A program made the position numbers and the translations under genes. Under the pieces are notes generated by a model that was not told the origin of the DNA, searched no databases, and saw only the letters and a program-made list of their open reading frames with translations. Positions 14,162-54,570 of a stretch of 64,000 nucleotides of DNA are shown one piece after another (position 1 is the stretch's first letter; every line of letters begins with the position of its first letter). The stretch is from a virus. Location of the stretch: positions 111,416 through 175,415 of IMG/VR virus record IMGVR_UViG_3300027850_000002. One strand, written 5' to 3'.

Positions 14162-14170
14162 ACTATAATT
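14162..14170 (+). promoter_or_regulatory. CTATAATT -10 promoter, leaderless
   Basis: TATAAT 14164-14169, ATG at 14176, no SD. Confidence 0.6.
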
Positions 14171-14175
14171 AGGGC

Positions 14176-14541: not shown

Positions 14542-14544
14542 CCA

Positions 14545-14994: not shown

Positions 14995-15269
14995 TGACGC
15001 TCAAGCACGCGTACGCGAGAGGTTGTCGAGCGGCGCTCGAGAAGTTCGCGCTCGATCCTCCAACCGCTGTTGACGCGTTCATGGGCGCGGTGGAATCAGG
15101 CAAGGATGTTGCGCCTGAACCGGCATTGCCGCCGATGTCTCATGCACCCGGCGAGATGCTTCCTGCACTCGACGGCACGACGCCACTCTCGACGTCGCCG
15201 CCCATGTCGCCGGACCTCGGTTCCACCATCGGTGCACCGCCACCACCCATGATGGGCGCGCTGGGCTGA
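14994..15269 (+). CDS. tagged Pro-rich small protein
   Basis: AYARGCRAALEKFAL tag then Pro-rich disordered tail. Confidence 0.65.
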   Translation: MTLKHAYARGCRAALEKFALDPPTAVDAFMGAVESGKDVAPEPALPPMSHAPGEMLPALDGTTPLSTSPPMSPDLGSTIGAPPPPMMGALG

Positions 15270-15270
15270 T

Positions 15271-16875: not shown

Positions 16876-16877
16876 TC

Positions 16878-16910
16878 AAAAAAAAAGGCGGGCCCGCTAA
16901 ACCCGAGCCC
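16878..16910 (-). terminator. intrinsic terminator of the (-) strand early block
   Basis: Minus strand reads GGGCTCG-loop-CGGGCCC, then GCC and T9, at the convergent junction. Confidence 0.65.
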
Positions 16911-16924
16911 CGGAGAAACCCTTG

Positions 16925-17218
16925 CTAGGGCGTCTCCTGATCTGTTTTGTCACGGTCAGGGTTCGCTCGACGCAGGCCCGCGAGGATGTAGATGGCGGCC
17001 GGCTTGCCCGCGCGCGTCTTACGTCGAGCGGCACGCGCTTCAACGAGCGGCTTCGGCTTCCAGTTCGCCAGTTCATTCACGCGCGCCGAGATGCTCTGGT
17101 GCGAGCGCTTCAATTCAATTTCGATTTCGTCGGTCGTCTTTCCGTCCCAGCCAGCGGTACGGATGATGTTGTAGACCTGCAGCTGCAGATCGCTCAAAAG
17201 GCTTTCGACGTCAGCCAT
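16925..17218 (-). CDS. winged-HTH DNA-binding protein
   Basis: GKTTDEIEIELKRSHQSISARVNEL...RKTRAGKPA. Confidence 0.65.
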   Translation of the reverse strand: MADVESLLSDLQLQVYNIIRTAGWDGKTTDEIEIELKRSHQSISARVNELANWKPKPLVEARAARRKTRAGKPAAIYILAGLRRANPDRDKTDQETP

Positions 17219-17417
17219 CTCCCATATGCTCCCTGCATGCCTTACATTCCTTGAACGATTTCTCCTGGATGTTTGATTGGCACGCTTTACATGTTTTGTA
17301 TCCAGAGAAGTCTGACCGTCCCTGTGTCTCGGCTGCGTATGCCAGCCGTGAGACTTGTTGTGTCAGCATCCCGATTGCTTCAATCGCACGTTCGAACAAC
17401 CGTTCGATGTCACGCAT
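17211..17417 (-). CDS. hypothetical protein with two CxxC
   Basis: CKAC x2, operonic overlaps. Confidence 0.5.
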   Translation of the reverse strand: MRDIERLFERAIEAIGMLTQQVSRLAYAAETQGRSDFSGYKTCKACQSNIQEKSFKECKACREHMGDG

Positions 17418-17634
17418 TGTCGAGAATATTCTTCTCGGCCCACCACATCTTCACAACCAACTGTCCGACGTCGTCTTGCTTCCACACCTCTGAGTCGTCG
17501 TGAACAACGGATTTGGGAATCCAACGCTGTCCTTCCGCGCTGGTGAAGGCGACAAGAATCGCCTTTTCAGATTCGCGGATACACTTTCCTTCGCCCATCT
17601 TGTGCGGTTCGTCGCCGCTGTTATCGCGTGGCAT
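17410..17634 (-). CDS. conserved phage hypothetical protein
   Basis: ESEKAILV...WIPKS...WWA motif, AAGGAG SD. Confidence 0.6.
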   Translation of the reverse strand: MPRDNSGDEPHKMGEGKCIRESEKAILVAFTSAEGQRWIPKSVVHDDSEVWKQDDVGQLVVKMWWAEKNILDNA

Positions 17635-17665
17635 GTTTCTCCTTCGAGGTCTTGTACCAAGAAAT

Positions 17666-35151: not shown

Positions 35152-35774
35152 TGGCGGACCGCCCGATGTGTTGCGATCTTGTTAGGACCTGTGTACGTGG
35201 TCGTGATGTTGAATGTCGCGAACTCGCCTTGGCCCGAGCCGCCGTCGGTGGCGAGAGCTGTAGCTGCGCCCGTTCGGAACACGCGTAGCCGCGCGAATAT
35301 TTGTCCGTTCGGGTCAGTGTTGTTTGTCTGGTCCATGTAGAAGTTGCCTTGGAGAAGACCGGCGGCGACTGCGATCGCATCTCCGACACTGCCGACGACG
35401 GCGTGTGCCGTGAGCAAGTCGTCGAGGACGGCAGCGGCGATCGCGGGTGCAAGAGGAAGATCGTCGGTGTTGCGCGTCAGGATGTTGAACGACGCGACGC
35501 CGCTGACCGGGCATCGTGCAGTCACGCCGCCGACAGTGACCTCGGCGTAGCTGCTGTACTCGTGACCCACGAGAAAGCCGTTGCCTGTCGTCAAGACCGC
35601 CTGAATCTCGTAAAGCCCGACAGCCTTCAACGCGACGACAGGCGCGTAGCCCATCGGCGTGCCTTGATCGAGGATCACACAGACCGGAAGGGAATCTGCG
35701 TTCTGTGCAGCGCCCGTTCCAAAATTCGCAGTCCCAAAGGTTCCGCGGAGGGTTTCACCAAGTTTGACGTACAT
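35148..35774 (-). CDS. putative virion structural protein (Ig-like)
   Basis: NADSLP...GLYEI..., Ig-like strands. Follows the appendage genes. Confidence 0.55.
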   Translation of the reverse strand: MYVKLGETLRGTFGTANFGTGAAQNADSLPVCVILDQGTPMGYAPVVALKAVGLYEIQAVLTTGNGFLVGHEYSSYAEVTVGGVTARCPVSGVASFNILTRNTDDLPLAPAIAAAVLDDLLTAHAVVGSVGDAIAVAAGLLQGNFYMDQTNNTDPNGQIFARLRVFRTGAATALATDGGSGQGEFATFNITTTYTGPNKIATHRAVRQ

Positions 35775-38700
35775 CAGCCACCTCCACGCAGAATGTTCGA
35801 ACCCACCAAGACGCCGCCGCCGCCACTGCCGCCAGCAATGATCTCGAGCGGATCTTGCGCCAGGAGAAGCGGATCGACTTCAACCTCGACTTGACTCGGC
35901 AACACGATGATCGAGCCGGTCACCGCTTGAATGGGCACGCCAATCGAACTACGCGAACCGTCAGCCACTGTACGGAACTCGGTGTTGCCGCTGTACGGTC
36001 CTTGCGGGTCGACGCTGTTGAGCGGGACGCTGCCGTTCCAAGGTACAGCGAATGCGTGACGCGACTGATCGGTTTGATACAAGTTGTTCGTCTTGAACAC
36101 GACCTTGTGCATCATGTAGTCGCGGGCAGTGCTCACCGTGATCGAAGTGCCGCCGTAGCCGTACGCTCGATCCGGCAAGTGCAAGAAGGACGATTCGCCC
36201 TTGATGCCACGACCCGCAGGCGCACCGCCGGTCTGTAACCACACCCACGGCCACAACCGCAGGTGGTTGCCTCCGACAGCAGGGTCACACCCAAAGAGTC
36301 CTCCGCCACCGCTACCACCACCCGCGATGGTGCCGTAGAGCGTCTCGTAGGTCGGAGAGCCGACGTTCGTCCAAAGCGCGTTCTCAGCAGTGAACGCCTC
36401 GCCGTAAAAAAACGCTGCGAAGGGTTGTGCGAACGGCGGGTAGTTGCTGTTTCCGCTGGAGTTGAATGCGCCCTGCATCCCGGAGAAGCCTTGTCCAGGC
36501 GAACTCCGCTGAGACACGTAGACAACGTACGGATCAGGGTCGGACGGGTCTGCGTTCTTGATCGGGTCATAGAACATGAACCCGGACGCTGAGCCGTTGA
36601 ACTTGCCGGTGTACCAGTGGTGTCCTGCGTGAACGAAGTGCGCACGACTTCGTGAGACGTCGTACGCGGTCGCGGCATATCCGTCGGAGCCTCCGGTGTA
36701 TGGCAACGCCTGGCCTTGGTTGTTGCCAGTCGGCGCCTCGAAGAAGTCCGTCTCCTGTTGCCAACCAAACACGGTGTCGACACGGTCCCAGAAGTATCCA
36801 GGTCCAGGGATGAAGCCTGAGTAGTTGCGCCCGCCTGCCATCGCGAGAACACCGCGCGCGTTGTCAAACCACATCGACCCGCCGACGCGCGGCAGGCTTG
36901 CCGGCAGAAACGTTTGCAGGACCCAATTTCCGCCGACCCATTTCCACGTATCGGTAGGAAAGATGCTGCCGTTGTACCCGCCGTACAGCCACACATTCGT
37001 TCCATCGCCACACATCGCCACCGACTCGCGCGTCCCTGGATTGTTCGCGGGTGCGAGCAAAGTCCAGTTTGATCCGTTCCACGAGTACGTCGAGGACTGG
37101 AGTGTCGGAGAACCGTCGTAGCCTCCGTACAAGATGACGCGGTCGCCGGCGCCATCCCATGCCATCGCGTGAAGAAACCGTGTCGCGGGTGTCGTCACGG
37201 GAACGGCGTTCGTCCACGTCACGCCGTTGTACATCCACGTGTCCGAGAGTGCGCTGTTGTTGCGATCACGACCGCCGAAGAGCACGACACGGCTGTTGGC
37301 CACGTCGTATGCCATCGAATGGTGGTACCGCGCTGACGGAGACGTTGTAGGAAAGATGCGTGTCCACTTCGTGCCGTCGAATTCCCATGTTCGATCGGTC
37401 GCGCCGTTTGGTGGCGTAACCGTGTCGTTGTATCCACCGAACCAGACGAGCACCTGTCGAACAGGGTCATAAACCATCTGTGAGCCGTGCCCAGCAGACG
37501 GAATGGCGCGGACAACACTCCACTGCGTACCGTTCCACAACCAGGTTTGGTTGCTGGTCTGGTTGCTGAACCCCCACGGAGCGTAGTCGTTTCCCGATGG
37601 AAACCCGGAATGCACAACCATACGTGCTCGATCAGAATCGAAACACGTAGCTGCACTGGCACGCCGACTCGGGGCACGTTCGTCCGGAAGCGAAAACGGT
37701 GTCGACGGTGATGCGACGGCCAGTGTCCAGTTCGTGCCGTTCCATGTGTATGTAGCACCGTCGTAGATGCCGCCAGCGAGCAACCCGCCCAACATCACAA
37801 TCTTACCGTTGGTCGTGTCTGTCACCATCGCTTGCGTCGAGCGTGCTGGTGGTATGGTGCCCGGAGCAAGCAACGTCCACGTATTGGTCGCTGTATTGAA
37901 CTCGTACGTCTGGCTGTTCGGGACTCCGCCGTTCTCGCCGCCGAACATGATGATGCGTCCGTTGGACGGGCTGATGCCCATGCCAGCGCCCGCGCATGCG
38001 GTCGGTGTTCCAACGGTTACGAGCAACGACCAATCCGTGCCGTCCCACTTCCAGGTGTCGTTCAGATACGTGCCACCCTGATCCTTGCCGCCGAACATGA
38101 TGATCGCATCCGCCGCGGGCGACCACACCATGGATTGTTGCTGGCGTGCGGGCGGTGTCGTAGTGACTGTAGTCGATGGGTGCCAACGCACGCCGTTCCA
38201 GATCATGGTCGTGGGCGTGGTTTCGATGTTGAAGTTGTCGATGAGGCCACCGAACAACACAACCTCTTGACGAGTCTCGTCGTACGCCATCGCGCCATTG
38301 CGACGAGGCCGCGGAGATCCGTTCCACGAGACCGTCGCAGCTTTCCAATCCGTGCCGTCCCACAGCCATGTTTGGATGTCGACGAAGTTGCCGCCAAACA
38401 AAACGCCTCGCTGACGAGCCTTGTCGTAGGCCATCATCGCGCCATCAGCAGCCGGCGGTGAATGTGCCAGTGAGTCAGGGTTACTGTCCCCACTGGTATC
38501 GAGCACGACCCAATCGTCGACGGCCAGCCCGCCTGCAACGAACCACCCGTCAAGATTGTAGCCGTACCCGCCTGCCCACCATCCATAGGGCGCAGCGTTG
38601 TCAGCGCTGATCGTGAACGTCTGATCCCCGTCTGGGTAGAGCGGGACGACGGCGAACGTCGGTGCTGCATCTGTTCCGCCACCGACAATGATGTGCTCAT

Positions 38701-39109
38701 CAACAGACGTCGGTGTTTCGATTGCGGACGGTGTTCCGCTCGTGAAAGGCGCAAACAGCGTGTACTTGATACGCCAACACAGGTTTGCAGAAAATCCAAG
38801 GAGGGGCGCGTACCCGAGTGTGTTGAGCGCTGCCGGATACACCGTGGCGTCGTCGACACGCTGAAAACAGAACATCGCACCGCTGTCCGGCTTCTTGATT
38901 ACAAACCACGCGAGTGTGTTCGCCATGCCGCCTGCGCCTGCGCCTGCGGTCGTGATGACGTCGTTGACGTTGCCTGGCGTTGTAGAGAACGTCGTACCAT
39001 CACTCGACGCTTGTACGACCCAACCGCAGCTCTTGAGCAACTGCTTGATTCGGAAGATCGCCTCCGCGAACGTGGCGGGAATGAAATTGGCGTCGAATTG
39101 CATGGTCAT
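35774..39109 (-). CDS. Kelch/galactose-oxidase beta-propeller tail appendage (putative receptor-binding protein)
   Basis: About a dozen P.AR....M.YD...V.LFGG...DTW.W.G..W repeats inserted into a scaffold shared with the two upstream genes. Confidence 0.8.
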   Translation of the reverse strand: MTMQFDANFIPATFAEAIFRIKQLLKSCGWVVQASSDGTTFSTTPGNVNDVITTAGAGAGGMANTLAWFVIKKPDSGAMFCFQRVDDATVYPAALNTLGYAPLLGFSANLCWRIKYTLFAPFTSGTPSAIETPTSVDEHIIVGGGTDAAPTFAVVPLYPDGDQTFTISADNAAPYGWWAGGYGYNLDGWFVAGGLAVDDWVVLDTSGDSNPDSLAHSPPAADGAMMAYDKARQRGVLFGGNFVDIQTWLWDGTDWKAATVSWNGSPRPRRNGAMAYDETRQEVVLFGGLIDNFNIETTPTTMIWNGVRWHPSTTVTTTPPARQQQSMVWSPAADAIIMFGGKDQGGTYLNDTWKWDGTDWSLLVTVGTPTACAGAGMGISPSNGRIIMFGGENGGVPNSQTYEFNTATNTWTLLAPGTIPPARSTQAMVTDTTNGKIVMLGGLLAGGIYDGATYTWNGTNWTLAVASPSTPFSLPDERAPSRRASAATCFDSDRARMVVHSGFPSGNDYAPWGFSNQTSNQTWLWNGTQWSVVRAIPSAGHGSQMVYDPVRQVLVWFGGYNDTVTPPNGATDRTWEFDGTKWTRIFPTTSPSARYHHSMAYDVANSRVVLFGGRDRNNSALSDTWMYNGVTWTNAVPVTTPATRFLHAMAWDGAGDRVILYGGYDGSPTLQSSTYSWNGSNWTLLAPANNPGTRESVAMCGDGTNVWLYGGYNGSIFPTDTWKWVGGNWVLQTFLPASLPRVGGSMWFDNARGVLAMAGGRNYSGFIPGPGYFWDRVDTVFGWQQETDFFEAPTGNNQGQALPYTGGSDGYAATAYDVSRSRAHFVHAGHHWYTGKFNGSASGFMFYDPIKNADPSDPDPYVVYVSQRSSPGQGFSGMQGAFNSSGNSNYPPFAQPFAAFFYGEAFTAENALWTNVGSPTYETLYGTIAGGGSGGGGLFGCDPAVGGNHLRLWPWVWLQTGGAPAGRGIKGESSFLHLPDRAYGYGGTSITVSTARDYMMHKVVFKTNNLYQTDQSRHAFAVPWNGSVPLNSVDPQGPYSGNTEFRTVADGSRSSIGVPIQAVTGSIIVLPSQVEVEVDPLLLAQDPLEIIAGGSGGGGVLVGSNILRGGG

Positions 39110-44665: not shown

Positions 44666-44863
44666 CTACTCGAACAGGTCGAGCAGGTCGCCACCCGTGC
44701 TTTCGTCCTCCAACGGGGCCTCGCCTGCTACTTGCCGGCGTAGCCACGTGCGGTGACGTCGTTTGAGCAACGCCAGTCGCTTCGCTTTGCTGAACGCTTC
44801 CGCGAAGCTCGTCGCGCCGAGAAAGGGCACGCCATGGGGCTTGCCGTTGGTCCACGTCATCAC
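44666..44863 (-). CDS. hypothetical protein
   Basis: Coupled small ORF. Confidence 0.4.
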   Translation of the reverse strand: MMTWTNGKPHGVPFLGATSFAEAFSKAKRLALLKRRHRTWLRRQVAGEAPLEDESTGGDLLDLFE

Positions 44864-45108
44864 TCACCGCTTGGTATCACATCGTCAAGAGGCGCAGCAA
44901 CGATACATTGAAGACACGTCGGGAAGCCGTCGACCTTCGTTCGAGCGTTGACGTCGTCCACCGTTACTTGCAGACGACAGAGAGTTGTGTATTCGACACG
45001 GTCAACACCGTGGGGCGTGCCGTACACGAGCTTGAGGATCGAGTGCTTCAGCTTTCGTAGAGGATCGAACCAGAGCCAGGGTATGTTCTCGCGGGTTTGA
45101 AACGTCAC
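44860..45108 (-). CDS. HC3-type zinc-finger mini-protein
   Basis: LKH...TTLC...PTCLQC. Confidence 0.6.
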   Translation of the reverse strand: MTFQTRENIPWLWFDPLRKLKHSILKLVYGTPHGVDRVEYTTLCRLQVTVDDVNARTKVDGFPTCLQCIVAAPLDDVIPSGE

Positions 45109-45596
45109 GGCTTGGGCATTGTGGTAAGCATCCCGGCGAGCCACGCTTGGTAGTCGACGATGTTCTTGTAGTCGTCGAAGATGGAGACGACGCGCCGACC
45201 GTTCATCTTCGGCGGAGGTATGTTCTGTAGTGGAATTTGCGGTCCAGGATACGGCGTACGTCCGGAGACGGTCTTTCCATATCGTGCGGCGAACGTCAGG
45301 GTCTTCTGTTCGTAGCGAAAGCTGACGCCGTCCGTTGAGTGTCCAGACAAACAACGAATACATGTGAGCATGTGGTCGTCGTTGATGTAGACGCCTTCAC
45401 GTGCGCGTCCTTTAGACCCGGGGTACAACGTGACAAGGACGCCACACTCCGTGATGCCCTCGACGGGATACATATCGTTGACGTCCATCTGTTCGTAGCT
45501 CGTGACGTAGGTTGCAAGCACTGTATGCGTGAGACTGTCGTGGTCGGGACCACGATCGTAAAAGAACGTCCAACGGTTGCGGCCGAGGGGCTTCAC
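45105..45596 (-). CDS. HC3-type zinc-finger protein
   Basis: DSLTH...TEC...LTCIRC. Confidence 0.6.
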   Translation of the reverse strand: MKPLGRNRWTFFYDRGPDHDSLTHTVLATYVTSYEQMDVNDMYPVEGITECGVLVTLYPGSKGRAREGVYINDDHMLTCIRCLSGHSTDGVSFRYEQKTLTFAARYGKTVSGRTPYPGPQIPLQNIPPPKMNGRRVVSIFDDYKNIVDYQAWLAGMLTTMPKP

Positions 45597-45883
45597 TCCA
45601 CCTGCTCCCGTGTCCCCAAACACTCGAGGCAGTTGATTATGGCTGGTTCGTCGGTTTGCGCGTCGTCCCATGTTTTAGCCAACACGTCTGTGCAGAGGAT
45701 GGTGTAGCCGATGATGACATCGACGTGATCGACGCCGGCACCGAGGATGTTGTCTGCGGATTGCCGTACCAGCACGGCGCCGTGGTGAACGAGCTGCGTC
45801 GCAGGGTCACGCCAGCGAAACGCTGCGGGCAGGAGCAGGATTCGAGGAACGACTCTTCGTGAGTCGAGTTTTCCAAAGCTCAT
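45593..45883 (-). CDS. HC3-type zinc-finger mini-protein
   Basis: DPATQLVH...TILC...INCLEC. Confidence 0.6.
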   Translation of the reverse strand: MSFGKLDSRRVVPRILLLPAAFRWRDPATQLVHHGAVLVRQSADNILGAGVDHVDVIIGYTILCTDVLAKTWDDAQTDEPAIINCLECLGTREQVE

Positions 45884-46062
45884 CACTCCTCCTTGGCCAG
45901 GCACTGTAAGCATGTGCGTACCCGGTCGCCTTGTTGAACTTCGTCGCTGCCGAACGTCTGATCGCACAACGTCAGGTAGGCCATCGCGCTGCGGCCCGGA
46001 AACACGATGGCGTGCACGAGGCCTGTGCTATCGACGACCGACCAGATGGTTCGGGCCGTCAT
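45883..46062 (-). CDS. HC3-type zinc-finger mini-protein
   Basis: DSTGLVH...TLC...RTCLQC. Confidence 0.65.
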   Translation of the reverse strand: MTARTIWSVVDSTGLVHAIVFPGRSAMAYLTLCDQTFGSDEVQQGDRVRTCLQCLAKEE

Positions 46063-46229
46063 CGCAGGCATTCAGGCTTCACCATCTCCTTGACGGTGTC
46101 GTGCACGCGGTCCTCGTAGCCGTGTGAATAGTTCCACGACCGTTCGAGCTGCCACGCGCCGTAGCTGACGAAGCTGAGAACAATGACCACGACGACGTAG
46201 AACGCCACGGACGGCTTGAAGGTCTTCAC
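46059..46229 (-). CDS. small single-TM protein
   Basis: MKTFKPSVAFYVVVVIVLSFVSYGAW..., coupled on both sides. Not in the ORF track. Confidence 0.55.
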   Translation of the reverse strand: MKTFKPSVAFYVVVVIVLSFVSYGAWQLERSWNYSHGYEDRVHDTVKEMVKPECLR

Positions 46230-46804
46230 GGCTTTTCTTTCTCCTTCTCGAGTTTCTCCTGTTCCTCGTACGCACGCATCAGTGCTTCCTGTTTGAGGCG
46301 CTCGGGCCAGTAGTACTCAGGCGTGTCGTAGTACGAGACCTTCTCTTCAACGACGGGCCGCACATAGTGCTCACGTTGGACATCCTTGTTCTTAGGCCAG
46401 TCTTCCCAAGCGCTGTCCTCTATCTCGTCTTGATCGAAGTACCACTCCATCCGCGCGTCGATGAGCTTCTGCTTCGCAGCGGGCGATAACCCTGTCATGC
46501 ACTGGCCGCCGGCCTTCATGTCGGGGAAGAAGTTCTCCTCCAGGTCGTTCCAAAGCTGTTCGTAGATCCAACCCTCGCACGCGAAGTGATCGCGGATCTC
46601 GACACACAACAAGCACGTCTTGAACGAATCGGGTCGACCGTCCCAGACGCTGGTAGCGTAGTCGTACTTCGTGCCTGCGGAGATGACCTCACGGCATTCA
46701 CCGCATACATGCTCCTTGCGGGCCTTGCGTACCGTTCGTGACGAACACGTCGGGCCTTCGCCGTCGTTGCCTTGAAGCGGACAGCAGACGATGTCACCCA
46801 TCAC
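46226..46804 (-). CDS. phage protein with zinc-ribbon (RKARKEH.C.EC...C..C)
   Basis: Common phage motif. Confidence 0.6.
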   Translation of the reverse strand: MMGDIVCCPLQGNDGEGPTCSSRTVRKARKEHVCGECREVISAGTKYDYATSVWDGRPDSFKTCLLCVEIRDHFACEGWIYEQLWNDLEENFFPDMKAGGQCMTGLSPAAKQKLIDARMEWYFDQDEIEDSAWEDWPKNKDVQREHYVRPVVEEKVSYYDTPEYYWPERLKQEALMRAYEEQEKLEKEKEKP

Positions 46805-46959
46805 AGCACCCAGTAGATGGGTTCAAGACCAATACACGCGAAGCATGTCAACGGACCGTCCACGGTGTCCCATGTTCGGGTGAGCTGACTCTCGTTGCAC
46901 AACGAGAGATGGTGACGAGGCCGTTCAATGTGAACAAGCCCGTCACCACCTGAGTGCAC
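46801..46959 (-). CDS. HC3-type zinc-finger mini-protein (start uncertain)
   Basis: DGLVH...SLC...LTCFAC. Confidence 0.5.
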   Translation of the reverse strand: MHSGGDGLVHIERPRHHLSLCNESQLTRTWDTVDGPLTCFACIGLEPIYWVL

Positions 46960-46997
46960 GGAAAGCGTTACGTAGTCGAACCGAGGTTGCGTGAGAC

Positions 46998-47243
46998 CTA
47001 CGGTGCTGCGTCCTTCGCAATCTTGTTGAGGGCTGAAACGTCGATCGGACGAGCCACGCGACGCGGCATCATCTTGAGCTTGACGCCTTCCTTGCGGAGG
47101 CGCGTCGACATTGCCGACACTGTGTTGCGGGAGAGGCCCGTCGCGGCCACCACCTCGGCGATGTTCGTCGCCTTCTGCCAGTTCTTCACAAAGGCCTCGT
47201 AAGCGTACGGGGCCGTCTTGGTCTTTCCATTCATCTTGGTCAT
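46998..47243 (-). CDS. HTH DNA-binding protein
   Basis: NIAEVVAATGLSRNTVSAMSTRLRKEGV. TTGACG -35 at 47273-47278. Confidence 0.65.
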   Translation of the reverse strand: MTKMNGKTKTAPYAYEAFVKNWQKATNIAEVVAATGLSRNTVSAMSTRLRKEGVKLKMMPRRVARPIDVSALNKIAKDAAP

Positions 47244-47313
47244 ATTGCTTTTCTGGCATGGCTCGGCACCTCCGTCAAGAGTCTAGTCAGTTCAATAAAC
47301 ACAGCTCGACAGT

Positions 47314-47517
47314 TCAGAACTCGCCCCACGGCCTTTCAACCAGGCAGCGAAAGCATGTGGTAGGTCCGAACTCGTAGTACACGGGCGACTTTGTACGGCC
47401 CATCCCGCATACAGTGGTGCCCCGAGAATTAGCACGGTGCATGAGGTCGTCGTGACCAGCCACATAGCCGTAGCGCCAGAGTCGGCGTTCAGCATCGAAG
47501 TCGACTATATCCCTCAG
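47314..47517 (-). CDS. HC3-type zinc-finger mini-protein (start uncertain)
   Basis: DDLMH...TVC...TTCFRC. Confidence 0.5.
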   Translation of the reverse strand: MRDIVDFDAERRLWRYGYVAGHDDLMHRANSRGTTVCGMGRTKSPVYYEFGPTTCFRCLVERPWGEF

Positions 47518-47732
47518 GTTGTTGGATCTTTCGTCCAATCGTGCATCGTAACGCCGGCAGCGCAGCCCATGCACGAGACCGGCAACGAGGTGACTGACGA
47601 CATCGCGAAGCCCCAGCCGCATGTGAACCAGGGCCACTCAGATTTGTTGTCCCGTTCGTTGGTCTCGCCGATATGGACAAGGCCGGTCGTGCGGTCGAGG
47701 AAGTGGTTATTGATGAGTGTTGGCGTTGGCAC
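47514..47732 (-). CDS. HC3-type zinc-finger mini-protein
   Basis: DRTTGLVH...FTC...VSCMGC. Confidence 0.6.
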   Translation of the reverse strand: MPTPTLINNHFLDRTTGLVHIGETNERDNKSEWPWFTCGWGFAMSSVTSLPVSCMGCAAGVTMHDWTKDPTT

Positions 47733-48126
47733 GTACCTCTCCTTCCCGTGCGATGCACTGCAGGCAGTTGACGGTCACTTCGTGGCTGAGAATACATTCG
47801 GCGTCGACACTCTCGTAGTCGCAGAACCGCATCCAGTGATCAATGCCGTCCCGAGTGTTGATGCCGGCGGAGTGCGTGAGCTGCTCGCGGCCAAGCGCAC
47901 GCCACTGGCGATAGGGTTCGTGAACGATGGGTGCGACCAAGAAGACCTGCGAGATGAACAAGAGGCGGCTCATCATCGATGAAGTGGTCGGCGACCAAGG
48001 CCCGACCTTGTTCTTGGTCATCTCGTCGACAGGCTGTCCGATCATCGGCTTGAGCGCGTCCCTCAAGTAGTCCGACATCCGTTGATGGATCTTCTTGATC
48101 CGCTTGTTGCGCTGTCGTTTGTTCAT
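47707..48126 (-). CDS. HC3-type zinc-finger protein with basic N-terminus
   Basis: QLTH...RFC...VNCLQC. Confidence 0.55.
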   Translation of the reverse strand: MNKRQRNKRIKKIHQRMSDYLRDALKPMIGQPVDEMTKNKVGPWSPTTSSMMSRLLFISQVFLVAPIVHEPYRQWRALGREQLTHSAGINTRDGIDHWMRFCDYESVDAECILSHEVTVNCLQCIAREGEVRANANTHQ

Positions 48127-48602
48127 TCGTGTTCCGCCGCGATGCACTGAAGGCACGACAGGATGGGCGGGTCCTTGGGCAAGTACATGAAGCATGTGAC
48201 TGTGGTCGTTTGCGGGCACTGCCACAGGAACAGCATCCCACACAAGAGAACGCCGGCCTGTTCAGCGAACGGCCACACCTGGACACGGTGAGCGAGGTCC
48301 GTGTTGGCGTCGGCGACAATGAACGGACGCTTGGTTTCGTTGCCTCGTAGCGGACTCTCTTGAATCTCGAGCGACTCGTCCTCGACCTCGGTGGTGTAGA
48401 GGCGGTGGCACAACATGAAGTCGTCGTTCTCGTAGGCGTCAGCGATAGCGCGTCGAACATCGGCGTCGGACACTTCGTCCTCGATGTTATTCATGATGAT
48501 TTCGGCACGCGCCTCCCGGGCGTCTTCAAGGGAGGCCCACGTGGTCACGTTTTCTCCGTGCCGATGCTTGTAGTGCAGCACGTACGTGTACTGCTTCATC
48601 AT
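48123..48602 (-). CDS. two-part protein with C-terminal HC3-type zinc finger
   Basis: DANTDLAH...LLC...LSCLQC. Confidence 0.6.
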   Translation of the reverse strand: MMKQYTYVLHYKHRHGENVTTWASLEDAREARAEIIMNNIEDEVSDADVRRAIADAYENDDFMLCHRLYTTEVEDESLEIQESPLRGNETKRPFIVADANTDLAHRVQVWPFAEQAGVLLCGMLFLWQCPQTTTVTCFMYLPKDPPILSCLQCIAAEHE

Positions 48603-48907
48603 CCGAAGCTCCCGACGCTGAGGCATTGCAGGCAGGTTGGAATCTCACGCACGTGGTACTCGACGATTTGGAATCGAGGCGAGCTGTGGGTCATCGTCAC
48701 GGCGGGAAGGGTGGAGCCGTGCCAATAGATGCCGCGCTGGTTGATTCCGTCGAATTGCTCGACCTTCGGGTGACATGCCGTCGAAACGTGCAGCGTGCAA
48801 AGCTTGTCTTCATCGTCAAAGAACCGCGCAACCATCGAATTGTGCAGGAGGCCCATGTCATCGCGGCAGACCCAGTGGTCGCGTTTGTTACGGGACGTCA
48901 CAGACAC
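48599..48907 (-). CDS. HC3-type zinc-finger mini-protein
   Basis: DDMGLLH...TAC...PTCLQC. Confidence 0.6.
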   Translation of the reverse strand: MSVTSRNKRDHWVCRDDMGLLHNSMVARFFDDEDKLCTLHVSTACHPKVEQFDGINQRGIYWHGSTLPAVTMTHSSPRFQIVEYHVREIPTCLQCLSVGSFG

Positions 48908-48908
48908 G

Positions 48909-49121
48909 TCAATGCCACGCGCCGCACGAACACGGGCCACTACGGACATCGCACGACTGCCCACCGTTCGTACCAAGCGACGCGTGCTCACCATGGGCGT
49001 CCATCAGACCGAGGTCCATCGCGCCGTTGACGAAGCAGCATTGCTGCAGTCCGTTGAAGTCGTGTTTGTGTTTCTCGGGGTGATTCTTGATATCGAGCAT
49101 CTTGGCTTGTCGCGCATTCAT
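48909..49121 (-). CDS. small Cys/His-rich protein
   Basis: CC...H...CDV..GPCSCGAWH. Confidence 0.55.
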   Translation of the reverse strand: MNARQAKMLDIKNHPEKHKHDFNGLQQCCFVNGAMDLGLMDAHGEHASLGTNGGQSCDVRSGPCSCGAWH

Positions 49122-49286
49122 CGTCGATAACTCTCCCGAAGCTCCCGGTGCAGCGCTTGTTCGTCATGAGCATGTACACGAGGTCGTAGGCCGCGTCGTA
49201 CATCGCGTTCGGGCGGGCTTTGACCTCGGAGGTCGAGATTGTATCGCCTGTCACGATGACGAGCTTGATGCGTGGTTTGTAGGCCA

Positions 49287-49592
49287 CTACGTCATCGCTC
49301 CGGTTGTGAGGTTGAGGCTGTACAGCTTGTAGATCTCGGGTTGATACAACGTCGCGTTGACGCTGCACACGTGCTGCTTGCACAGTGCATAATTGGTCCA
49401 GGCCCCGGTCGACACCTTGAGCCCGAACGGATCGTTGGCCAGCTCCTCCGGTGTCCATGTGATTGGGTGCGTGCGGTCGAACAACGAATCGAGAACGATC
49501 GTCTCGGCTTCACGTCGGCTGCATGCGCTCACGAGGTAGACGGTCTCGATGTCGTCTTTTTTGTGGATGACCTTCCAGACGTTGAGGGTCAT
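49287..49592 (-). CDS. hypothetical protein
   Basis: Coupled ORF. Confidence 0.5.
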   Translation of the reverse strand: MTLNVWKVIHKKDDIETVYLVSACSRREAETIVLDSLFDRTHPITWTPEELANDPFGLKVSTGAWTNYALCKQHVCSVNATLYQPEIYKLYSLNLTTGAMT

Positions 49593-49804
49593 ACGTACTC
49601 CGGCCAGACAAAGACGTCGTCAGGGAACCCGCCCTTGAGCTGCTTTCGATAGGCACCACCGGCCATGGCCATCGTGCGCCGATACTCGTCGTCGTCCTCG
49701 GTGCACTGGCGCATGGCGGCGGATGCTTCGACCTGTGACTTGAAGGGGCCGCACTTCGCGATGCCGCCACCTCGTGCGAACCATTGCAGTTTCTTTTTCG
49801 CCAT
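49589..49804 (-). CDS. hypothetical protein
   Basis: MAKKKLQWFARGGGIAKCGPFKSQ..., coupled. Confidence 0.55.
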   Translation of the reverse strand: MAKKKLQWFARGGGIAKCGPFKSQVEASAAMRQCTEDDDEYRRTMAMAGGAYRKQLKGGFPDDVFVWPEYV

Positions 49805-50016
49805 CACGCGCTCCCGAAGCGAAACGACTGGAAGCACGGATCGCCGTCTGAATCGCTGATGAAGAACCCGAGCGTCTCAAGACGTTTTTCGTCGGCCGCG
49901 GAGACTTTCCCCGGGTCAATGCCGCAAATGGTCAGAACGTCGTGCTCGCAGTGTGTCGGGTTGCGCGGGTTGCCGTACTTGAGGAAGATGGTGAGCGCTT
50001 CGATGAGGTCCTTCAT
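49804..50016 (-). CDS. conserved phage hypothetical protein
   Basis: MKDLIEALTIFLKYGN..PTHCEHD...SFRFGSA, GGAG SD. Confidence 0.65.
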   Translation of the reverse strand: MKDLIEALTIFLKYGNPRNPTHCEHDVLTICGIDPGKVSAADEKRLETLGFFISDSDGDPCFQSFRFGSA

Positions 50017-50204
50017 GTCTTCTCCATCCGGGCGACGGCGTGGCGTGCGGCGTCGACGTGCGTTTGAGCACTCGCGATGTCGATGCGCGCAGCGTCTCTC
50101 GGCGAACCCGCGAGAGGCGCAGGTAGTCGACGGGAGGCTTCCTTCAAGGCCATCTGCGCCGTCAGCAACAGTCCGTAGATGACGCCGATGTCTTCGTCGC
50201 TCAT
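50013..50204 (-). CDS. hypothetical protein
   Basis: Coupled ORF. Confidence 0.45.
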   Translation of the reverse strand: MSDEDIGVIYGLLLTAQMALKEASRRLPAPLAGSPRDAARIDIASAQTHVDAARHAVARMEKT

Positions 50205-50240
50205 GGCTGGATGCGCTTGTCGAGGTCATCGGGATCGATG

Positions 50241-51581
50241 TCAGACACTGAGCACCTCACTCGTCTGCCGTTCGAGGTCCCAGTGCTTCTCGATGAAGTC
50301 GATGACGAGCTTGGGGTCGACGTTCTTGTTGAACACGATGTTGGGTCCGTGCTTCTCGAGCATCACCGCCTTCACGGGGTATTTGAGGTTGCCGTTGTAG
50401 AGGTCAAAAACTTTCAGCCCGTCGCTCGTGTTCTTGCCGCACTCGTGCGAGCCGCACTCGTGGGCTTCTTGCGACCGCATGGGGATGTCACCACGCACGA
50501 GGTTCTCGTGGCGGTCGCCCTTCATCGGGCAGTGGAAGTGCACGATGCAATCGACGTCCGGATGGTCCGCGAAGATGATGCGCTGACTCTGGCCGCCGAC
50601 CGAGGGCTTCGCACCCATGGCGATCACGTTGTCGTCGCCTTTGGCGAGCACCATCACCATACCGACCTTGTCCAGCTCGTTGAAGTTCACGCCGCGCCGA
50701 GACGTCACGAACACGCCGTTGTCGACCTTGAACGCGAAGTGTCCGACGGTCTTACCGTTGAACGGCTTGTACGCACCGCGCTTGATGCAGTGGTCGACGA
50801 CGGTGCGTAGCGACGCAGGAACGGTCTCGCCGGTCCACGTGACAGGCTCACCTTCACGAACCTCGCTGCGTGTGAAGTGTCCCTTCGACCGATCAACCGC
50901 CATCGACACCAGGCCGTTGATCGCCGAGCGTCGGTCGTAGGTCATGTAGTACGGCGCCTGCTCGGGCGTGACGACCATGTTCATGCGGGTCTCGAGGTCG
51001 TTGGCGAGCACGAGGTTGCATGACGCCTTCTTCACGAGGTTCAGGCCGGCGTCGAACTGCTGTTCGGGGGTGGCGCCGGTCGTCGTCTTGAAGCCGACGA
51101 GGAAGATGTCCTTGCGGGTGCGTCGGACCTTCTGGATGACCTTCTCGGACGGACGGAGGTTGAGCCCGTACTCGTGCGCCGAGGACAAGCGTGAGTACGC
51201 CTTGCCGATGTCACGAAGCTTCTCGCCCATCGACCACAGCCCGTCGATGGACTCGACCTCGAAGTCACACAGCGCCGCCGGCAAGATGATGACCTTGGGC
51301 TTAGGGTCGGTGCACAGCTCGTTGAGCAGAGCTGCGATGTCTTCGTTGGTCTCGAGGTTCTTGGGCTCGACATCGTCACGCCCCGTACGCGCCGACCAGA
51401 TCGAATGACGGTTGCCCGCCATCTTCGTCGTGTACGAGTGGACGAGGCCGTCGAAGTTGTTCTGGTACAGCGCCTCCTCGATGTCACGCACGACCTTGCC
51501 GTACGCAGGAGCCGAGAGCGCGAGATGCGGACGGATGTGGAACACGGTTCCGCCGCCGATGATGTGGACGGGCTTGTTCAT
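50241..51581 (-). CDS. CoaB (phosphopantothenate-cysteine ligase)-like domain fused to class II aldolase/adducin-like domain
   Basis: IGGGT..HIRPH.ALS, PAALCDF, LVGFK, VLANDL (CoaB-like). FVTSRRG, KPSV, IVHFH, LEKHG (aldolase II-like). Confidence 0.7.
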   Translation of the reverse strand: MNKPVHIIGGGTVFHIRPHLALSAPAYGKVVRDIEEALYQNNFDGLVHSYTTKMAGNRHSIWSARTGRDDVEPKNLETNEDIAALLNELCTDPKPKVIILPAALCDFEVESIDGLWSMGEKLRDIGKAYSRLSSAHEYGLNLRPSEKVIQKVRRTRKDIFLVGFKTTTGATPEQQFDAGLNLVKKASCNLVLANDLETRMNMVVTPEQAPYYMTYDRRSAINGLVSMAVDRSKGHFTRSEVREGEPVTWTGETVPASLRTVVDHCIKRGAYKPFNGKTVGHFAFKVDNGVFVTSRRGVNFNELDKVGMVMVLAKGDDNVIAMGAKPSVGGQSQRIIFADHPDVDCIVHFHCPMKGDRHENLVRGDIPMRSQEAHECGSHECGKNTSDGLKVFDLYNGNLKYPVKAVMLEKHGPNIVFNKNVDPKLVIDFIEKHWDLERQTSEVLSV

Positions 51582-51790
51582 GGTGTTTCCTTGTGAGCGT
51601 GTGCATCGCAGCGCACGCAGATCTTCTTCTTGCGTCCGCCGGTCTGGCGGAACCAGTGCCATTCGTGGGAGCCGAGCCTGCACAGAAGCTGCCCAGCGAC
51701 GTACGACGCGAGCTGCGGTGCTCGCCGGACGTAGTCATGCCAGCGCAGACCTTCTTCGATGCCTGCTCGATAGTCGCGCGAGGGGCGCAT
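51578..51790 (-). CDS. DUF1660-like zinc-binding small protein
   Basis: LLCRLGSHEW...CVRC. Confidence 0.55.
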   Translation of the reverse strand: MRPSRDYRAGIEEGLRWHDYVRRAPQLASYVAGQLLCRLGSHEWHWFRQTGGRKKKICVRCDAHAHKETP

Positions 51791-51966
51791 TACTCCTCCG
51801 GTTCGATGGGCTCGCTCGCCTCGTAGTTGGGGTCGGTGAGAACTTCGGGACGGAAGCACTTCAGCTTCTCGTCGATGCATTCGTTGCAGACGCGTGCGAG
51901 GGGAATGCCGCGAGCGTCGTTCTCCCACCACGAGCCGTCACCCTTAGTGTGCTGATGCGCCGTCAT
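51790..51966 (-). CDS. small phage protein
   Basis: DARGIPLARVC..C....FRPEVLTDPNY. Not in the ORF track. Confidence 0.55.
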   Translation of the reverse strand: MTAHQHTKGDGSWWENDARGIPLARVCNECIDEKLKCFRPEVLTDPNYEASEPIEPEE

Positions 51967-52011
51967 GCCGAAGCCTTTCGTTCGTATTTTGACGTTCGTA
52001 TTTCTACGTCT

Positions 52012-52239
52012 TTACGTCATGGAGATGTTTGTTTGACAGACCTCTCTTGCTTTCCCTGTCTCAAAGCGCAGACTCCCCTTGTGTTGGTTGCGTTCATCCA
52101 GGCGAACCGCACCATCCTCATTGAGCGTGCGCAAGAACGCCTCATTGAGCGTGCGCAAGAACGCCTCATTGAGCGTGCGCAACGCGCCCCACATGCCGTA
52201 GGTGTTTGCGATGCGGGTGTAGCGCTTCGTCGGTTTCAC
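52012..52239 (-). CDS. hypothetical protein with LRTLNEAF repeat
   Basis: In-frame tandem repeat. Confidence 0.4.
   Translation of the reverse strand: MKPTKRYTRIANTYGMWGALRTLNEAFLRTLNEAFLRTLNEDGAVRLDERNQHKGSLRFETGKAREVCQTNISMT
52116..52182. repeat. 24-bp perfect tandem repeat, ~2.8 copies
   Basis: Unit cctcattgagcgtgcgcaagaacg at 52116 and 52140, partial at 52164. Confidence 0.9.
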
Positions 52240-52547
52240 GCGGCATCGGCCTTGGCCTTTGCATCGAGCTTGACTCGAACCCGTCGAAGCTTTGCATAGA
52301 GCGCGGGGTCCTCGCTCTCATGCATGAGCGACGGATTGGGGTCGCGGCCTTCCATGTCGCAGTCTTCGCAGAACGAGTTGTCACCGTTGTTCCACGAGCC
52401 GCACAGATCGTGGGTCTGGTCGGTGTTGGGCGAATACCAGATCGAGTACTGCACGTCGTGCGAGCCACAGACTCGACAACAACAGAAGTCCGTGTCAGGC
52501 GCCGTCGTCGTCTTCGACTTCTTTTTCTTCTTCTTCAATGTAGCCAC
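52236..52547 (-). CDS. zinc-ribbon protein with poly-Lys N-terminus
   Basis: CRVCGS.DV...FCEDC, AAGGAGG SD. Confidence 0.6.
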   Translation of the reverse strand: MATLKKKKKKSKTTTAPDTDFCCCRVCGSHDVQYSIWYSPNTDQTHDLCGSWNNGDNSFCEDCDMEGRDPNPSLMHESEDPALYAKLRRVRVKLDAKAKADAA

Positions 52548-52583
52548 GTTCGTACGCCTCCTTGGCGATGTTGAAACCGAACT

Positions 52584-52715
52584 TCACGTTCTCGAGGGGT
52601 GGCCTGTGACCTCGAGAAGGGTGAGATCACACTCCGTGATGATGATGGGTTGATGTTCCGGTGTTTCGTAGATGATGTGGACGAGACCGTCATCGTCGCA
52701 GTTGAACTGGTTCAT
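52584..52715 (-). pseudogene. truncated HC3-type zinc-finger copy
   Basis: MNQFNCDDDGLVH...ITEC... stops before the CxxC. Confidence 0.45.
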
Positions 52716-52951
52716 GGTTCAGGCCCTTGTTCGTTCGGTGAACGAACGCCCCATTGAAACCATTGAAGCCCCGAACCATCGGAGCCGCCGATGCACCAGA
52801 AGCACGTCGGCACCGCGTTGCGATCGTAATGTTGGTCCATCGTGGCAGCTCCGAAGCTGCCCTTGCAGACCGAAAGGCTCAGGCTCTTAACGTCGCGCAG
52901 GTGTACGACCGGGTCGGGTCCTTTGATGCGGGTGTAGTCGGTGTACTTCAC
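52712..52951 (-). CDS. HC3-type zinc-finger mini-protein
   Basis: DPVVH...SVC...PTCFWC. Confidence 0.6.
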   Translation of the reverse strand: MKYTDYTRIKGPDPVVHLRDVKSLSLSVCKGSFGAATMDQHYDRNAVPTCFWCIGGSDGSGLQWFQWGVRSPNEQGPEP

Positions 52952-53199
52952 TTCCAGAAACTCCTCCCTGAGAGGCACCAGAGACATGTGACGGGTGCGA
53001 GCGTCTCGACCATACGGTGGTCGATCAAGCACACCGTCATACCGAGGTGGTTGGCGGTCACCTGTTGACTGCTCTCGTGAACGACGCCGTTGTCGTCAGC
53101 CCAGTGCCACGACAGACCCGCGCCAAGTCGTTGCGAGAGCACAGAGCCTTGCTCGCTCGTCGGTAGAGGTGTGTGTGGTGTAAACGTTCGACGCTTCAT
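52948..53199 (-). CDS. HC3-type zinc-finger mini-protein
   Basis: DDNGVVH...TVC...VTCLWC. Confidence 0.65.
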   Translation of the reverse strand: MKRRTFTPHTPLPTSEQGSVLSQRLGAGLSWHWADDNGVVHESSQQVTANHLGMTVCLIDHRMVETLAPVTCLWCLSGRSFWK

Positions 53200-53438
53200 G
53201 GTTCGAACTCTTTTGCCAAACACTGGAGGCAAGTTACGAAACCGTTGAACAGGTGCGGCGGTTTGTTGGTGCGAGATGTGGTGACTATCACCTCGTAGAG
53301 GCCGCAAAGCGTGACCCAGGTGACCGATTCTTCTTCGAAGACATTGTGAAGAACTCCGTGACGAAGACCGTGAAGACTCCAGACCTTGCCTTCGAGGTAC
53401 ATGAGCTGCCACCCACGATCGACGGCCGCGTGCCTCAC
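53196..53438 (-). CDS. HC3-type zinc-finger mini-protein
   Basis: GLRH/GVLH...TLC...VTCLQC. Confidence 0.6.
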   Translation of the reverse strand: MRHAAVDRGWQLMYLEGKVWSLHGLRHGVLHNVFEEESVTWVTLCGLYEVIVTTSRTNKPPHLFNGFVTCLQCLAKEFEP

Positions 53439-53980
53439 GACGTTTCGATCTCAATCAGTGGTCGACCGTAACCCTGCCACTCCTTCACACAGTCTTCGCA
53501 CGTGATGACAGCCTCCTTAGTCGTACGCAGTCGTCGTGTGGATGCACCACACATTGTGTAGTTCGTGTCGACGATACCGATGTGAACTGTACCAGGACGT
53601 CCTGCGCTCATATGTGGGTACTGGAGCAGACGAGCTATATCACTCGGTCCAAGCGTGTACGCTTTGTCGGTAGGCGGATTGGCGTAACGCCAATGACGCG
53701 GGTTGATACATGTAGCCAAACCACACGTGTTCTCGAGAAACAGACGGCGGATGCCAACACCGTCATTGTCCCAACACCAAAGCAATCGGGCGACAACGAA
53801 CTGTACCGAGACCTCGGCCGGCGGCGTCCACGGAAAGATGGCGATCGGTCCTGCACCATCGTCATGGAACTCAGCGAGCCAATACCAGTGGTTCGGTGTG
53901 ACCTCCACGAAGGGGTCAACCAGCTCACGGGGAGGGATCACAACCGTACGTCCGAAATGTCCAGGTAACCGGATACCCAT
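53435..53980 (-). CDS. degenerate HNH (His-Cys zinc-loop) domain plus HC3-type zinc finger
   Basis: VARLLW...CGLATCINPRHW, then GTVH...TMC...ITCEDC. Confidence 0.6.
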   Translation of the reverse strand: MGIRLPGHFGRTVVIPPRELVDPFVEVTPNHWYWLAEFHDDGAGPIAIFPWTPPAEVSVQFVVARLLWCWDNDGVGIRRLFLENTCGLATCINPRHWRYANPPTDKAYTLGPSDIARLLQYPHMSAGRPGTVHIGIVDTNYTMCGASTRRLRTTKEAVITCEDCVKEWQGYGRPLIEIETS

Positions 53981-54570
53981 CAGCAACCGCCTTTACATGT
54001 GATGACTGCGTTGGTGGCGAGCACTGTGGAAACGTCGGGGACGATGACGGCTTCGCACATCGCAACAAACCTGGACGTCAGAACCGGGAGCACGGGCACT
54101 GCGTGCGAAACCCCGTGCTGGTCACGTACCGCGAGTAGCAGGCGCTTCTCCACAGGGCGTCCTGTTCGGCGCTCGACCACACGCCAACCCCCGTACTCGG
54201 CAGGGTCGAAGCGATACCGGGGCACAGGTTCAACCCATGTCCAGTGGTCCGGATTCACACAGCCCGGGTGACCGCACTTCAGTGTGAAGCTAGAACGTTC
54301 GGGGAACGGTCCTTTGTGGTGTTCGATAAGCAATCGAGCAACGACAAATATTCCACGCTTAACATTTGTGTTGGGCGCCCACGATATAACCGCATGGCCG
54401 TACTCACTAAGACGACGTGGAAACTTGGCCTCGAGATCGACAGACCATAACCAATGCCCTGAAGTGTCTTCGTCCTTCACTATATAACGCAGTAAAAGCG
54501 CCATCGGAGGCTGTTGTTTTCGGAGCCAAGTCGCTCCATGTGTTTTCAACAAGTTGGCGGAATATGACAT
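53980..54570 (-). CDS. degenerate HNH (His-Cys zinc-loop) domain plus HC3-like zinc finger
   Basis: GHWLW...YG...VARL...CGHPGCVNPDHW, then DQHGVSH...AMC...ITCKGGC. Confidence 0.6.
   Translation of the reverse strand: MSYSANLLKTHGATWLRKQQPPMALLLRYIVKDEDTSGHWLWSVDLEAKFPRRLSEYGHAVISWAPNTNVKRGIFVVARLLIEHHKGPFPERSSFTLKCGHPGCVNPDHWTWVEPVPRYRFDPAEYGGWRVVERRTGRPVEKRLLLAVRDQHGVSHAVPVLPVLTSRFVAMCEAVIVPDVSTVLATNAVITCKGGC

Follow-up and report, generated by a model that had tools for sequence, protein, structure and literature searches.

Why would a tailed phage, a kind of virus that rarely keeps large paralog families, carry dozens of diverged copies of one very small gene? The question is raised by a stretch of 64,000 bp (positions 111,416 to 175,415 of IMG/VR virus record IMGVR_UViG_3300027850_000002), here called the window, in which two runs of short open reading frames (ORFs) encode mini-proteins sharing one histidine and three cysteines (His-Cys3). 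The whole record is a single virus record of 175,415 bp with 59% G+C, estimated by CheckV to be 94% complete, and the window is its last 64 kb. A preliminary description of the window, made from its letters alone, listed 15 such ORFs plus one truncated copy in two runs and regarded them as a hypervariable, antibody-like binder library. All of the listed ORFs exist, in each case on the minus strand and with the motif. In total, 16 family genes were counted in the window, 10 at 44.86 to 48.9 kb and 6 at 52.58 to 54.57 kb, among them two nuclease-domain fusions (g1 and g2) and one truncated copy (g6). As set out below, these ORFs are real genes of one homologous, previously unnamed protein family, and sequence comparison indicates that the copies are an old, stable set of specialized genes rather than a recently diversified library.

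Membership in the family was assessed with two sequence profiles. The first, built from 26 clear copies and searched against six-frame ORFs of the genome, matched approximately 40 ORFs at an E value below 0.02, every one on the minus strand, while its best match on reversed sequences reached an E value of only 0.45. The second profile, A2, draws mainly on homologues from elsewhere, although one sequence of the window and a few library proteins that match proteins of this genome exactly were among its members. At E values of ≤0.01, it recovers 15 ORFs in the window and 42 in the whole genome, compared to none in a reversed-sequence control, so that the motif similarity is significant. A separate genome-wide profile search counted 38 family matches. 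Depending on the search, the genome encodes 38 to 44 copies, and two related IMG/VR records encode 45 (158 kb) and 29 (112 kb, 60% complete). The window arrays make up only about one third of the copies of this genome; approximately 27 others lie at genome positions 1 to 21.5 kb and one at 64 kb. With 38 to 45 copies, a domain of approximately 60 residues takes up about 5% of a 175-kb genome. Gene starts were assigned from upstream stop positions and ribosome-binding sites.

The shared motif on a fixed His-Cys3 scaffold, as first described, is found in all listed ORFs. In an alignment of 30 copies, the His, the Cys, and the first Cys of the CxxC are invariant, and the preceding Thr and the last Cys occur in at least 90% of the copies. 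None of the four ligands (H, C, and CxxC) varies among 129 external homologues, and all four align in 157 of 173 domains from seven contigs, with a spacing over these 157 domains of H-x(6-37)-C-x(14-37)-C-x2-C. The conserved parts comprise only the ligands and two turn motifs, D-x-x-G-L-V-H and T-C-L-x-C-[IL]-A, and the window ORFs end in [TSN]-C-[LFIM]-x-C shortly before the stop codon. The two loops, of 6 to 37 and 14 to 37 residues, differ among paralogs and are kept among orthologues. Outside eight motif columns, the paralogs of this genome are only 12% identical, and in this sense the loops do differ completely, as originally stated. Degenerate DNA patterns retrieve only a few percent of the known copies. 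Two exact DNA matches were seen between otherwise unrelated copies, one of 21 nt (genome positions 6289-6309 and 11499-11519, encoding CFWCIA) and one of 18 nt (916-933 and 1143-1160, encoding CLWCIA). By a rough estimate, identical motifs combined with high-GC codon bias probably explain both matches without recombination.

An AlphaFold2 model was computed for a 62-residue copy (45883-46071) using the 129-sequence alignment. The model, with a mean predicted local distance difference test score (pLDDT) of 82, shows five short strands followed by a C-terminal helix. The domain unit is predicted to be a five-stranded SH3-like beta-barrel of 55 to 65 residues, closed by the C-terminal helix. In the model, strand 2 carries His20, Cys36 follows directly after strand 3, and the helix (residues 55 to 61) has Cys54 and Cys57 at its start. 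This placement of the His, the Cys, and the CxxC, together with their conservation, suggests that they hold one metal ion, most likely zinc. A treble-clef zinc finger was considered and rejected, as H20 and C36 lie on or after separate strands, 6 to 37 residues apart across the family, and form no knuckle. The CxxC does stand at the start of the C-terminal helix, though the first two ligands are not on a CxxC-type hairpin.

Comparison of the model with known structures gave weak similarities. The best PDB neighbors are SH3, Tudor/PWWP, KOW, Hfq, and integrase C-terminal domains, with Z scores of 3.0 to 4.2 and root mean square deviations of 2 to 3 Å over 40 to 49 residues. These scores fit a common arrangement and not homology. 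Foldseek searches with the model returned no PDB match at an E value of ≤0.001 (best, 0.35) and nothing better than 0.14 in BFVD. Segments of longer hypothetical proteins in the ESM Atlas, labeled mainly as Actinomycetota, Chloroflexota, and Dormiibacterota, align with the model at template modeling (TM) scores of 0.72 to 0.79. The SH3-like small barrels (SH3, Tudor/PWWP, KOW, Hfq/Sm, and integrase C-terminal domains) resemble the modeled domain in having five short strands in approximately 50 residues. However, descriptions of these PDB neighbors do not mention a His-Cys3 metal site, and no neighbor covers the C-terminal CxxC helix in its alignment with the model. Sso7d and Sac7d, which combine a barrel with a C-terminal helix and serve as engineered binder scaffolds, are absent among the structural matches listed.

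The copies are not recent duplicates. Within the genome, no copy shares more than 38% identity with its nearest paralog, and neither repeats nor templates that link copies were found in its DNA; most pairs are undetectable by BLASTP. When this genome (G000) is compared to the related record G001, 32 domains are reciprocal best matches in collinear order, at 30 to 75% identity, and copies without a partner number 12 of 44 in G000 and 16 of 48 in G001. Four window genes were also compared to a closer contig, L013. Their ratios of nonsynonymous to synonymous substitution rates (dN/dS) are 0.10 to 0.25; the dS of approximately 1.1 to 1.4 is near saturation, which makes these values rough but clearly below 1. 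Among them, gene a10 has an orthologue that is 81% identical (dN/dS, 0.10), gene a12 one that is 74% identical (dN/dS, 0.13), and gene a13 likewise gives a dN/dS of 0.13. L013 carries three extra family genes where the window has none, after the counterpart of a 65-amino-acid gene described below. Across 18 orthologue pairs, the two loops are 56 to 57% identical, above the N- and C-terminal tails (39 to 50%).

Copy content varies between relatives, as shown by the unmatched copies of G000 and G001 and the three extra copies of L013. The view of the array as hypervariable and antibody-like has to be given up, as the paralogs are ancient, dN/dS across relatives indicates constraint, and the loops are kept in orthologues. 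A diversity-generating retroelement target was also considered and rejected: the genome contains no reverse transcriptase (no RVT_1 match), no repeats link the copies, and the orthologue loops are conserved. Taken at the level of sequence, the copies appear to be an old and stable set of specialized genes with moderate gain and loss, kept copy by copy.

The family extends well beyond this genome. A profile search of 1.84 billion cluster representatives returned 426 proteins at an E value of ≤0.001, all metagenomic and unnamed, and the ten matches that were looked up occur in metagenome assemblies only, with no name. Most of the 426 are 52 to 90 residues long, and among the best 150, approximately 10 have two domains in tandem. 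A word-indexed search found no longer fused forms, which is weak evidence. The N-terminal HEMGH of protein P0021 was considered as a protease fusion and rejected, since it is probably an over-extended gene call overlapping the upstream gene.

Arrays are the rule in the contigs examined. At E values of ≤0.01, 23 ORFs were matched in 20 kb of L005, 15 in 20 kb of L008, 12 in 12.9 kb of L010, 9 in 11.8 kb of L012, and 60 in 20 kb of L011 (63.7% G+C), compared to none in the reversed controls of these five contigs. L011, a 44.5-kb Logan contig (SRR23954820), has the densest array: approximately 60 matches lie nearly back to back on one strand at positions 100 to 18700. On visual inspection, three adjacent copies at 8413-9346 of this contig, whose C-terminal motifs are nearly the same, resemble recent duplicates. 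A neighboring DFP/aldolase-like gene of the window is shared by 16 more distant large-phage contigs, none of which contains a family copy, so the expansion is specific to one lineage. This increase to approximately 40 copies in each genome took place long ago, within a single clade of uncultured phages of high G+C content.

Searches of reference collections gave no relatives. None of the Pfam and PHROGs matches of the window copies and the 129 homologues reaches family significance, and a sequence-profile search of the PDB gave chance-level matches only. Likewise, a tblastn search of two family proteins against 50,697 GenBank phage records and a Megablast search of 20 kb of the window against GenBank phages returned no match. 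No entry for the family or for such arrays was found in Pfam, PHROGs, or the GenBank phages, nor was a description found in the literature searched; this negative holds for these resources and does not prove absence. A paper on the VIPR RNA-guided silencing system, which it describes as a system of inter-phage conflict (10.64898/2026.04.26.720920), says nothing of zinc-binding or finger proteins. This agrees with the earlier impression that such an array had not been described.

The closest named family is zf-HC3 (PF16827), an uncharacterized His-Cys3 zinc-finger family found mainly in Actinomycetota, to which the mini-proteins had initially been likened. The likeness lies in the small size and in the set of one His and three Cys ending in CxxC, and this part of the comparison stands. 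The PF16827 gathering score is not reached: among 17 window ORFs, the sole match is a13 at 14.2 bits (cutoff, 25 bits; E value, 0.054), a genome-wide six-frame search gave no candidates even at E values of ≤10, and the 129 homologues gave one sub-threshold match (E value, 0.036). In addition, a 75-residue ESM Atlas cluster, 11% of whose members carry PF16827, matches the model at TM scores of 0.65/0.57, and a feature-space neighbor cluster with 23% such members ranks 26th (score, 0.88). On this sequence evidence, zf-HC3 is at best a weak lead and not a demonstrated parent. No function of zf-HC3 was found in the literature, where one paper mentions the family by name only, and we know of no report of zf-HC3 arrays.

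Clusters of dozens of diverged paralogs in nonstructural regions are known from large DNA viruses, including the multigene families (MGF) of African swine fever virus and the ankyrin or BTB/kelch families of poxviruses and giant viruses. The copy content of these families varies between relatives, and a role in host interaction is presumed. However, they belong to eukaryotic viruses and consist of larger repeat domains, whereas the family described here is a putatively metal-stapled domain of 55 to 65 residues encoded by translationally coupled mini-genes of a tailed phage. To our knowledge, no tailed-phage family has a comparable copy number, and the expansion is unusual for a tailed phage both in its number of copies and in the smallness of its unit.

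Two members carry the domain in a different context. The first genes of the second run, g1 (53980-54570, minus strand; 196 amino acids, or 214 with a start at 54624; A2 E value, 9.4e-4) and its paralog g2 (53435-53980, minus strand; 181 amino acids; A2 E value, 0.0011), encode a nuclease-like N-terminal part followed by a C-terminal His-Cys3 domain, which is divergent in g1. The N-terminal domains have a His-Me finger/HNH-like core, as judged from profile or fold matches. For g1, the matches are phrog_1872, annotated as endonuclease (E value, 1.6e-9), and phrog_826 (HNH; 2.2e-6). For g2, residues 11 to 102 of an AlphaFold2 model (pLDDT, 86) match I-HmuI (Z score, 5.1) and I-PpoI (4.8), with the next unrelated fold at 2.3. 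The N-terminal 100 or so residues of g2 also resemble DNA-binding domains derived from His-Me finger nucleases. In the same model, the C-terminal part shows the order of elements of the mini-protein, with strands followed by the CxxC helix.

The g2 gene has 19 metagenomic homologues of 164 to 192 residues at 43 to 78% identity. The invariant columns of their alignment include H133, C144, C161, and C164 in the C-terminal part, as well as H31, N93, and H96. Similar to the homing endonucleases I-HmuI and I-PpoI, g1 and g2 place a separate small module after the nuclease core; in contrast to them, this module is a His-Cys3 barrel and not a helix-turn-helix (HTH). Moreover, g2 is a conserved gene in relatives, unlike sporadic homing elements. 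In the unrelated contig L011, tandem ORFs similar to g1 and g2 were observed at 13553-14715.

What the array does for the phage was approached through gene order, expression signals, and the properties of the encoded proteins. The arrays are long co-directional runs, and most copies are translationally coupled, as had been noted. Start and stop codons overlap as ATGA, GTGA, or TGATG at positions 45108, 45596, 45883, 46062, 48126, 48602, 52715, 53199, and 53980, and optional overlaps exist at two more junctions, 52951 and 53438. The late-gene motif CCTAT[AC]ATT occurs 13 times in the genome and never inside the arrays. Because the runs are coupled, co-directional, and free of the late motif, the genes are probably made together before the late phase. 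A scan for sigma-70 promoters and terminators showed no enrichment in the arrays, and k-mer enrichment there recovered only codons of the LVH and CIA motifs and no promoter.

The proteins themselves hint at the nature of their targets. When proper gene models are used, acidic to neutral isoelectric points (pI) of 4.3 to 6.7 are obtained for 11 of the 16 window proteins, and one protein has a net charge of -14. This acidity makes proteins, and not nucleic acids, the likely targets. No column is conserved apart from the ligands and turns, and no surface patch is shared. That conservation is confined to these positions speaks against a shared partner and in favor of a different surface, and hence a different target, for each copy.

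Taken together, we tentatively favor the reading that the family consists of small, non-late, co-expressed proteins that act inside the cell, where every copy would bind a separate protein of the host or of a rival element, and we give it slightly less than an even chance. The loop surface of each small protein would bind, and block or redirect, a different target from the host or a competing mobile element, and the same domain also forms the C-terminal module of the two conserved nuclease-like proteins. Host defense or regulatory proteins, the targets first proposed, are plausible candidates. A bolder version sees the family as a natural binder toolkit, in which a minimal metal-stapled barrel with two free loops, in approximately 40 copies, would make each copy the specific inhibitor of a different target; this is possible but rather doubtful.

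Several observations weigh against small intracellular binders. The strong purifying selection fits stable housekeeping roles equally well. Across all contigs, many domains are basic, with a median pI of 7.8 to 9.8, as calculated with crude domain boundaries, and some copies may therefore bind nucleic acids. The fusion in g1 and g2 places the domain where DNA-binding modules usually sit. Finally, the timing of expression rests only on the absence of one motif and on gene order, as the scans for early promoters were negative.

The alternative that fares best is a nucleic-acid-binding module. The mini-proteins would be small sequence-specific DNA or RNA binders, such as repressors, anti-terminators, or protectors of phage DNA, and in g1 and g2 the domain would guide the nuclease to its site. 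Its main support is that very position C-terminal to a nuclease-like domain, conserved across the 19 homologues. In addition, several of the weak structural neighbors bind nucleic acid (retroviral integrase C-terminal domains, KOW, Hfq, and KorB-C), basic copies are numerous in other contigs, and an HTH gene adjoins copies in the window. However, the acidic to neutral window proteins, including the one at a net charge of -14, fit such a role poorly, and no basic or aromatic surface position is conserved. The structural matches are all weak (Z score, ≤4.2), and 40 to 60 separate regulators per phage are hard to justify. We therefore consider this role unlikely.

Somewhat less probable still is that the copies are interchangeable specificity or adaptor subunits of one phage machine, for example, an RNA polymerase, the g1/g2 pair, or a protease, to which each would bring a different substrate or site. 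The co-directional and translationally coupled genes, with probably roughly coordinated expression, are compatible with this idea, as are the covalent union of the domain with an enzyme-like domain in g1 and g2 and the common occurrence of tandem two-domain members (approximately 10 of the best 150 matches). However, if the copies docked onto a shared partner, a conserved patch would be expected, and conservation stops at the metal ligands and turn residues. In the loci examined, no candidate for such a partner was seen to co-vary with the family.

A fast-evolving antibody-like library, with loops continually diversified in an arms race with host defenses, is largely refuted and now seems improbable. 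The wholly different loops of paralogs and the varying copy content (12 and 16 unmatched copies in G000 and G001, and three extra in L013) would suit it, but dN/dS values of 0.10 to 0.25, conserved orthologue loops, nearest paralogs at ≤38% identity (no recent duplications), and the lack of common DNA repeats or templates and of a reverse transcriptase in the genome all contradict it. Three-Cys-one-His sites hold 2Fe-2S clusters in other proteins, and the metal taken up by dozens of co-expressed sites could be appreciable, but a His-Cys3 iron-sulfur, redox, or metal-buffering center with which the family would manipulate the metal or redox state of the host is very improbable, as bulk metal binding needs no 40 distinct, individually conserved loop sets and the wide ligand spacing H-x(6-37)-C-x(14-37)-CxxC is more in keeping with a structural staple than with a tuned redox site.

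The individual genes vary considerably in size. All lie on the minus strand, and the first run begins with a1 (48599-48907; A2 E value, 0.0064), which encodes approximately 100 amino acids with a long second loop; its start is uncertain, and the frame is open up to 48994. The ATG of a2 (48123-48602; 159 amino acids; 7.8e-6) overlaps the stop of a1 (ATGA), and the product carries an acidic N-terminal extension of approximately 95 amino acids before its His-Cys3 domain. Next, a3 (47707-48126; 139 amino acids; 6.1e-5), coupled to a2 by an ATGA, has a basic N-terminal extension ahead of the domain. It is followed by a4 (47514-47732; 72 amino acids; 7.2e-9), which overlaps the end of a3 by 26 nt, has its own ribosome-binding site, and encodes a protein found in identical form in a public protein collection (P0009). 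The a5 gene (47314-47538; approximately 74 amino acids, start uncertain; 4.9e-8) has a close homologue in P0012.

Three non-family genes, all in the same direction, are interleaved in the first run within the span 46059-47243, which also includes the family gene a7 (46801-46959; 6.4e-8). These are genes for an HTH protein (46998-47243), a Cys-rich 192-amino-acid protein (46226-46804), and a 56-amino-acid predicted membrane protein (46059-46229). The Cys-rich protein belongs to a different family (phrog_19515; E value, 8.7e-14) with its own CxxC...CxxC pattern, and a partial ORF in L013 shares 75% identity with it. From its first GTG, a7 encodes 52 amino acids. Its open frame runs up to 47274, approximately 300 nt upstream of the first usable start, and overlaps the HTH gene in another frame. 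Judging from the reading frames, a7 may be either only 52 amino acids long or part of an HTH-finger fusion made by frameshifting.

The run continues with a10 (45883-46062; 59 to 62 amino acids), the best-scoring copy (6.6e-17) and the one used for the AlphaFold2 model. Its stop overlaps the start of a11 (45593-45883; 96 amino acids) in a TGATG. The a11 product has a long first loop and shows the motif by eye; its own profile score is weak (E value, 0.43), and its L013 orthologue, at 61% identity between the two, scores 5.1e-6. The last two genes, each joined to its predecessor by a GTGA, are a12 (45105-45596; 163 amino acids; 0.005), with an N-terminal His-Cys3 domain followed by an extension of approximately 70 amino acids, and a13 (44860-45108; 82 amino acids; 1.5e-6). 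Directly downstream of a13 lies the 65-amino-acid gene mentioned above (44669-44860, minus strand), which is real because its counterpart in L013 is 80% identical.

In the second run, g2 is followed by g3 (53196-53402; 4.1e-11; P0032), which encodes 68 amino acids, or 80 from a GTG at 53438 that overlaps the stop of g2. An ATGA links g3 to g4 (52948-53199; 83 amino acids; 5.2e-11; P0022). Next comes g5 (52712-52987; 79 to 91 amino acids; 9.4e-11; P0011), which has a 72% identical orthologue in G001 and shares an ATGA with the truncated g6 (52584-52715; 43 amino acids; 0.0015). The g6 product retains DDDGLVH and the first Cys and is without the CxxC helix.

Other features of the window lie outside the family. 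Between the two runs, a 75-amino-acid ORF (52012-52239, minus strand) contains a repeated LRTLNEAF peptide, encoded by three tandem 24-nt units at 52116-52187, two of them identical. An 11-mer common to this repeat and genome position 8121 is merely the codons for LNEA. A 103-amino-acid protein encoded at 52236-52547 has a lysine run near its N terminus and two CxxC pairs; it falls outside the His-Cys3 family, and its Pfam match is at chance level. The 480-amino-acid fusion encoded at 50241-51683 joins a DFP-like domain (phosphopantothenate-cysteine ligase type) to a class II aldolase-like domain, and its relatives, at 42 to 66% identity, were found in numerous large phage contigs whose G+C contents range from 30% to 67%. 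Finally, 35774-39109 encodes a 1,111-amino-acid protein with multiple Kelch repeats (Pfam E value, 2.7e-58), which is unusual in a phage.

If the toolkit is real, its targets would be host defense, a host core process, or rival mobile elements, many of them neutralized at once by proteins of approximately 60 residues, and its scaffold would lend itself directly to engineered binders of very small size. Should the copies be specific inhibitors, the family would be a rich source of new anti-defense or host-takeover proteins. A role in nucleic acid binding or in the service of a phage enzyme, if true, would instead reveal a new small metal-dependent recognition module. In each case, 426 unnamed metagenomic clusters become one definable family with a clear signature, a structural model, and a testable hypothesis.

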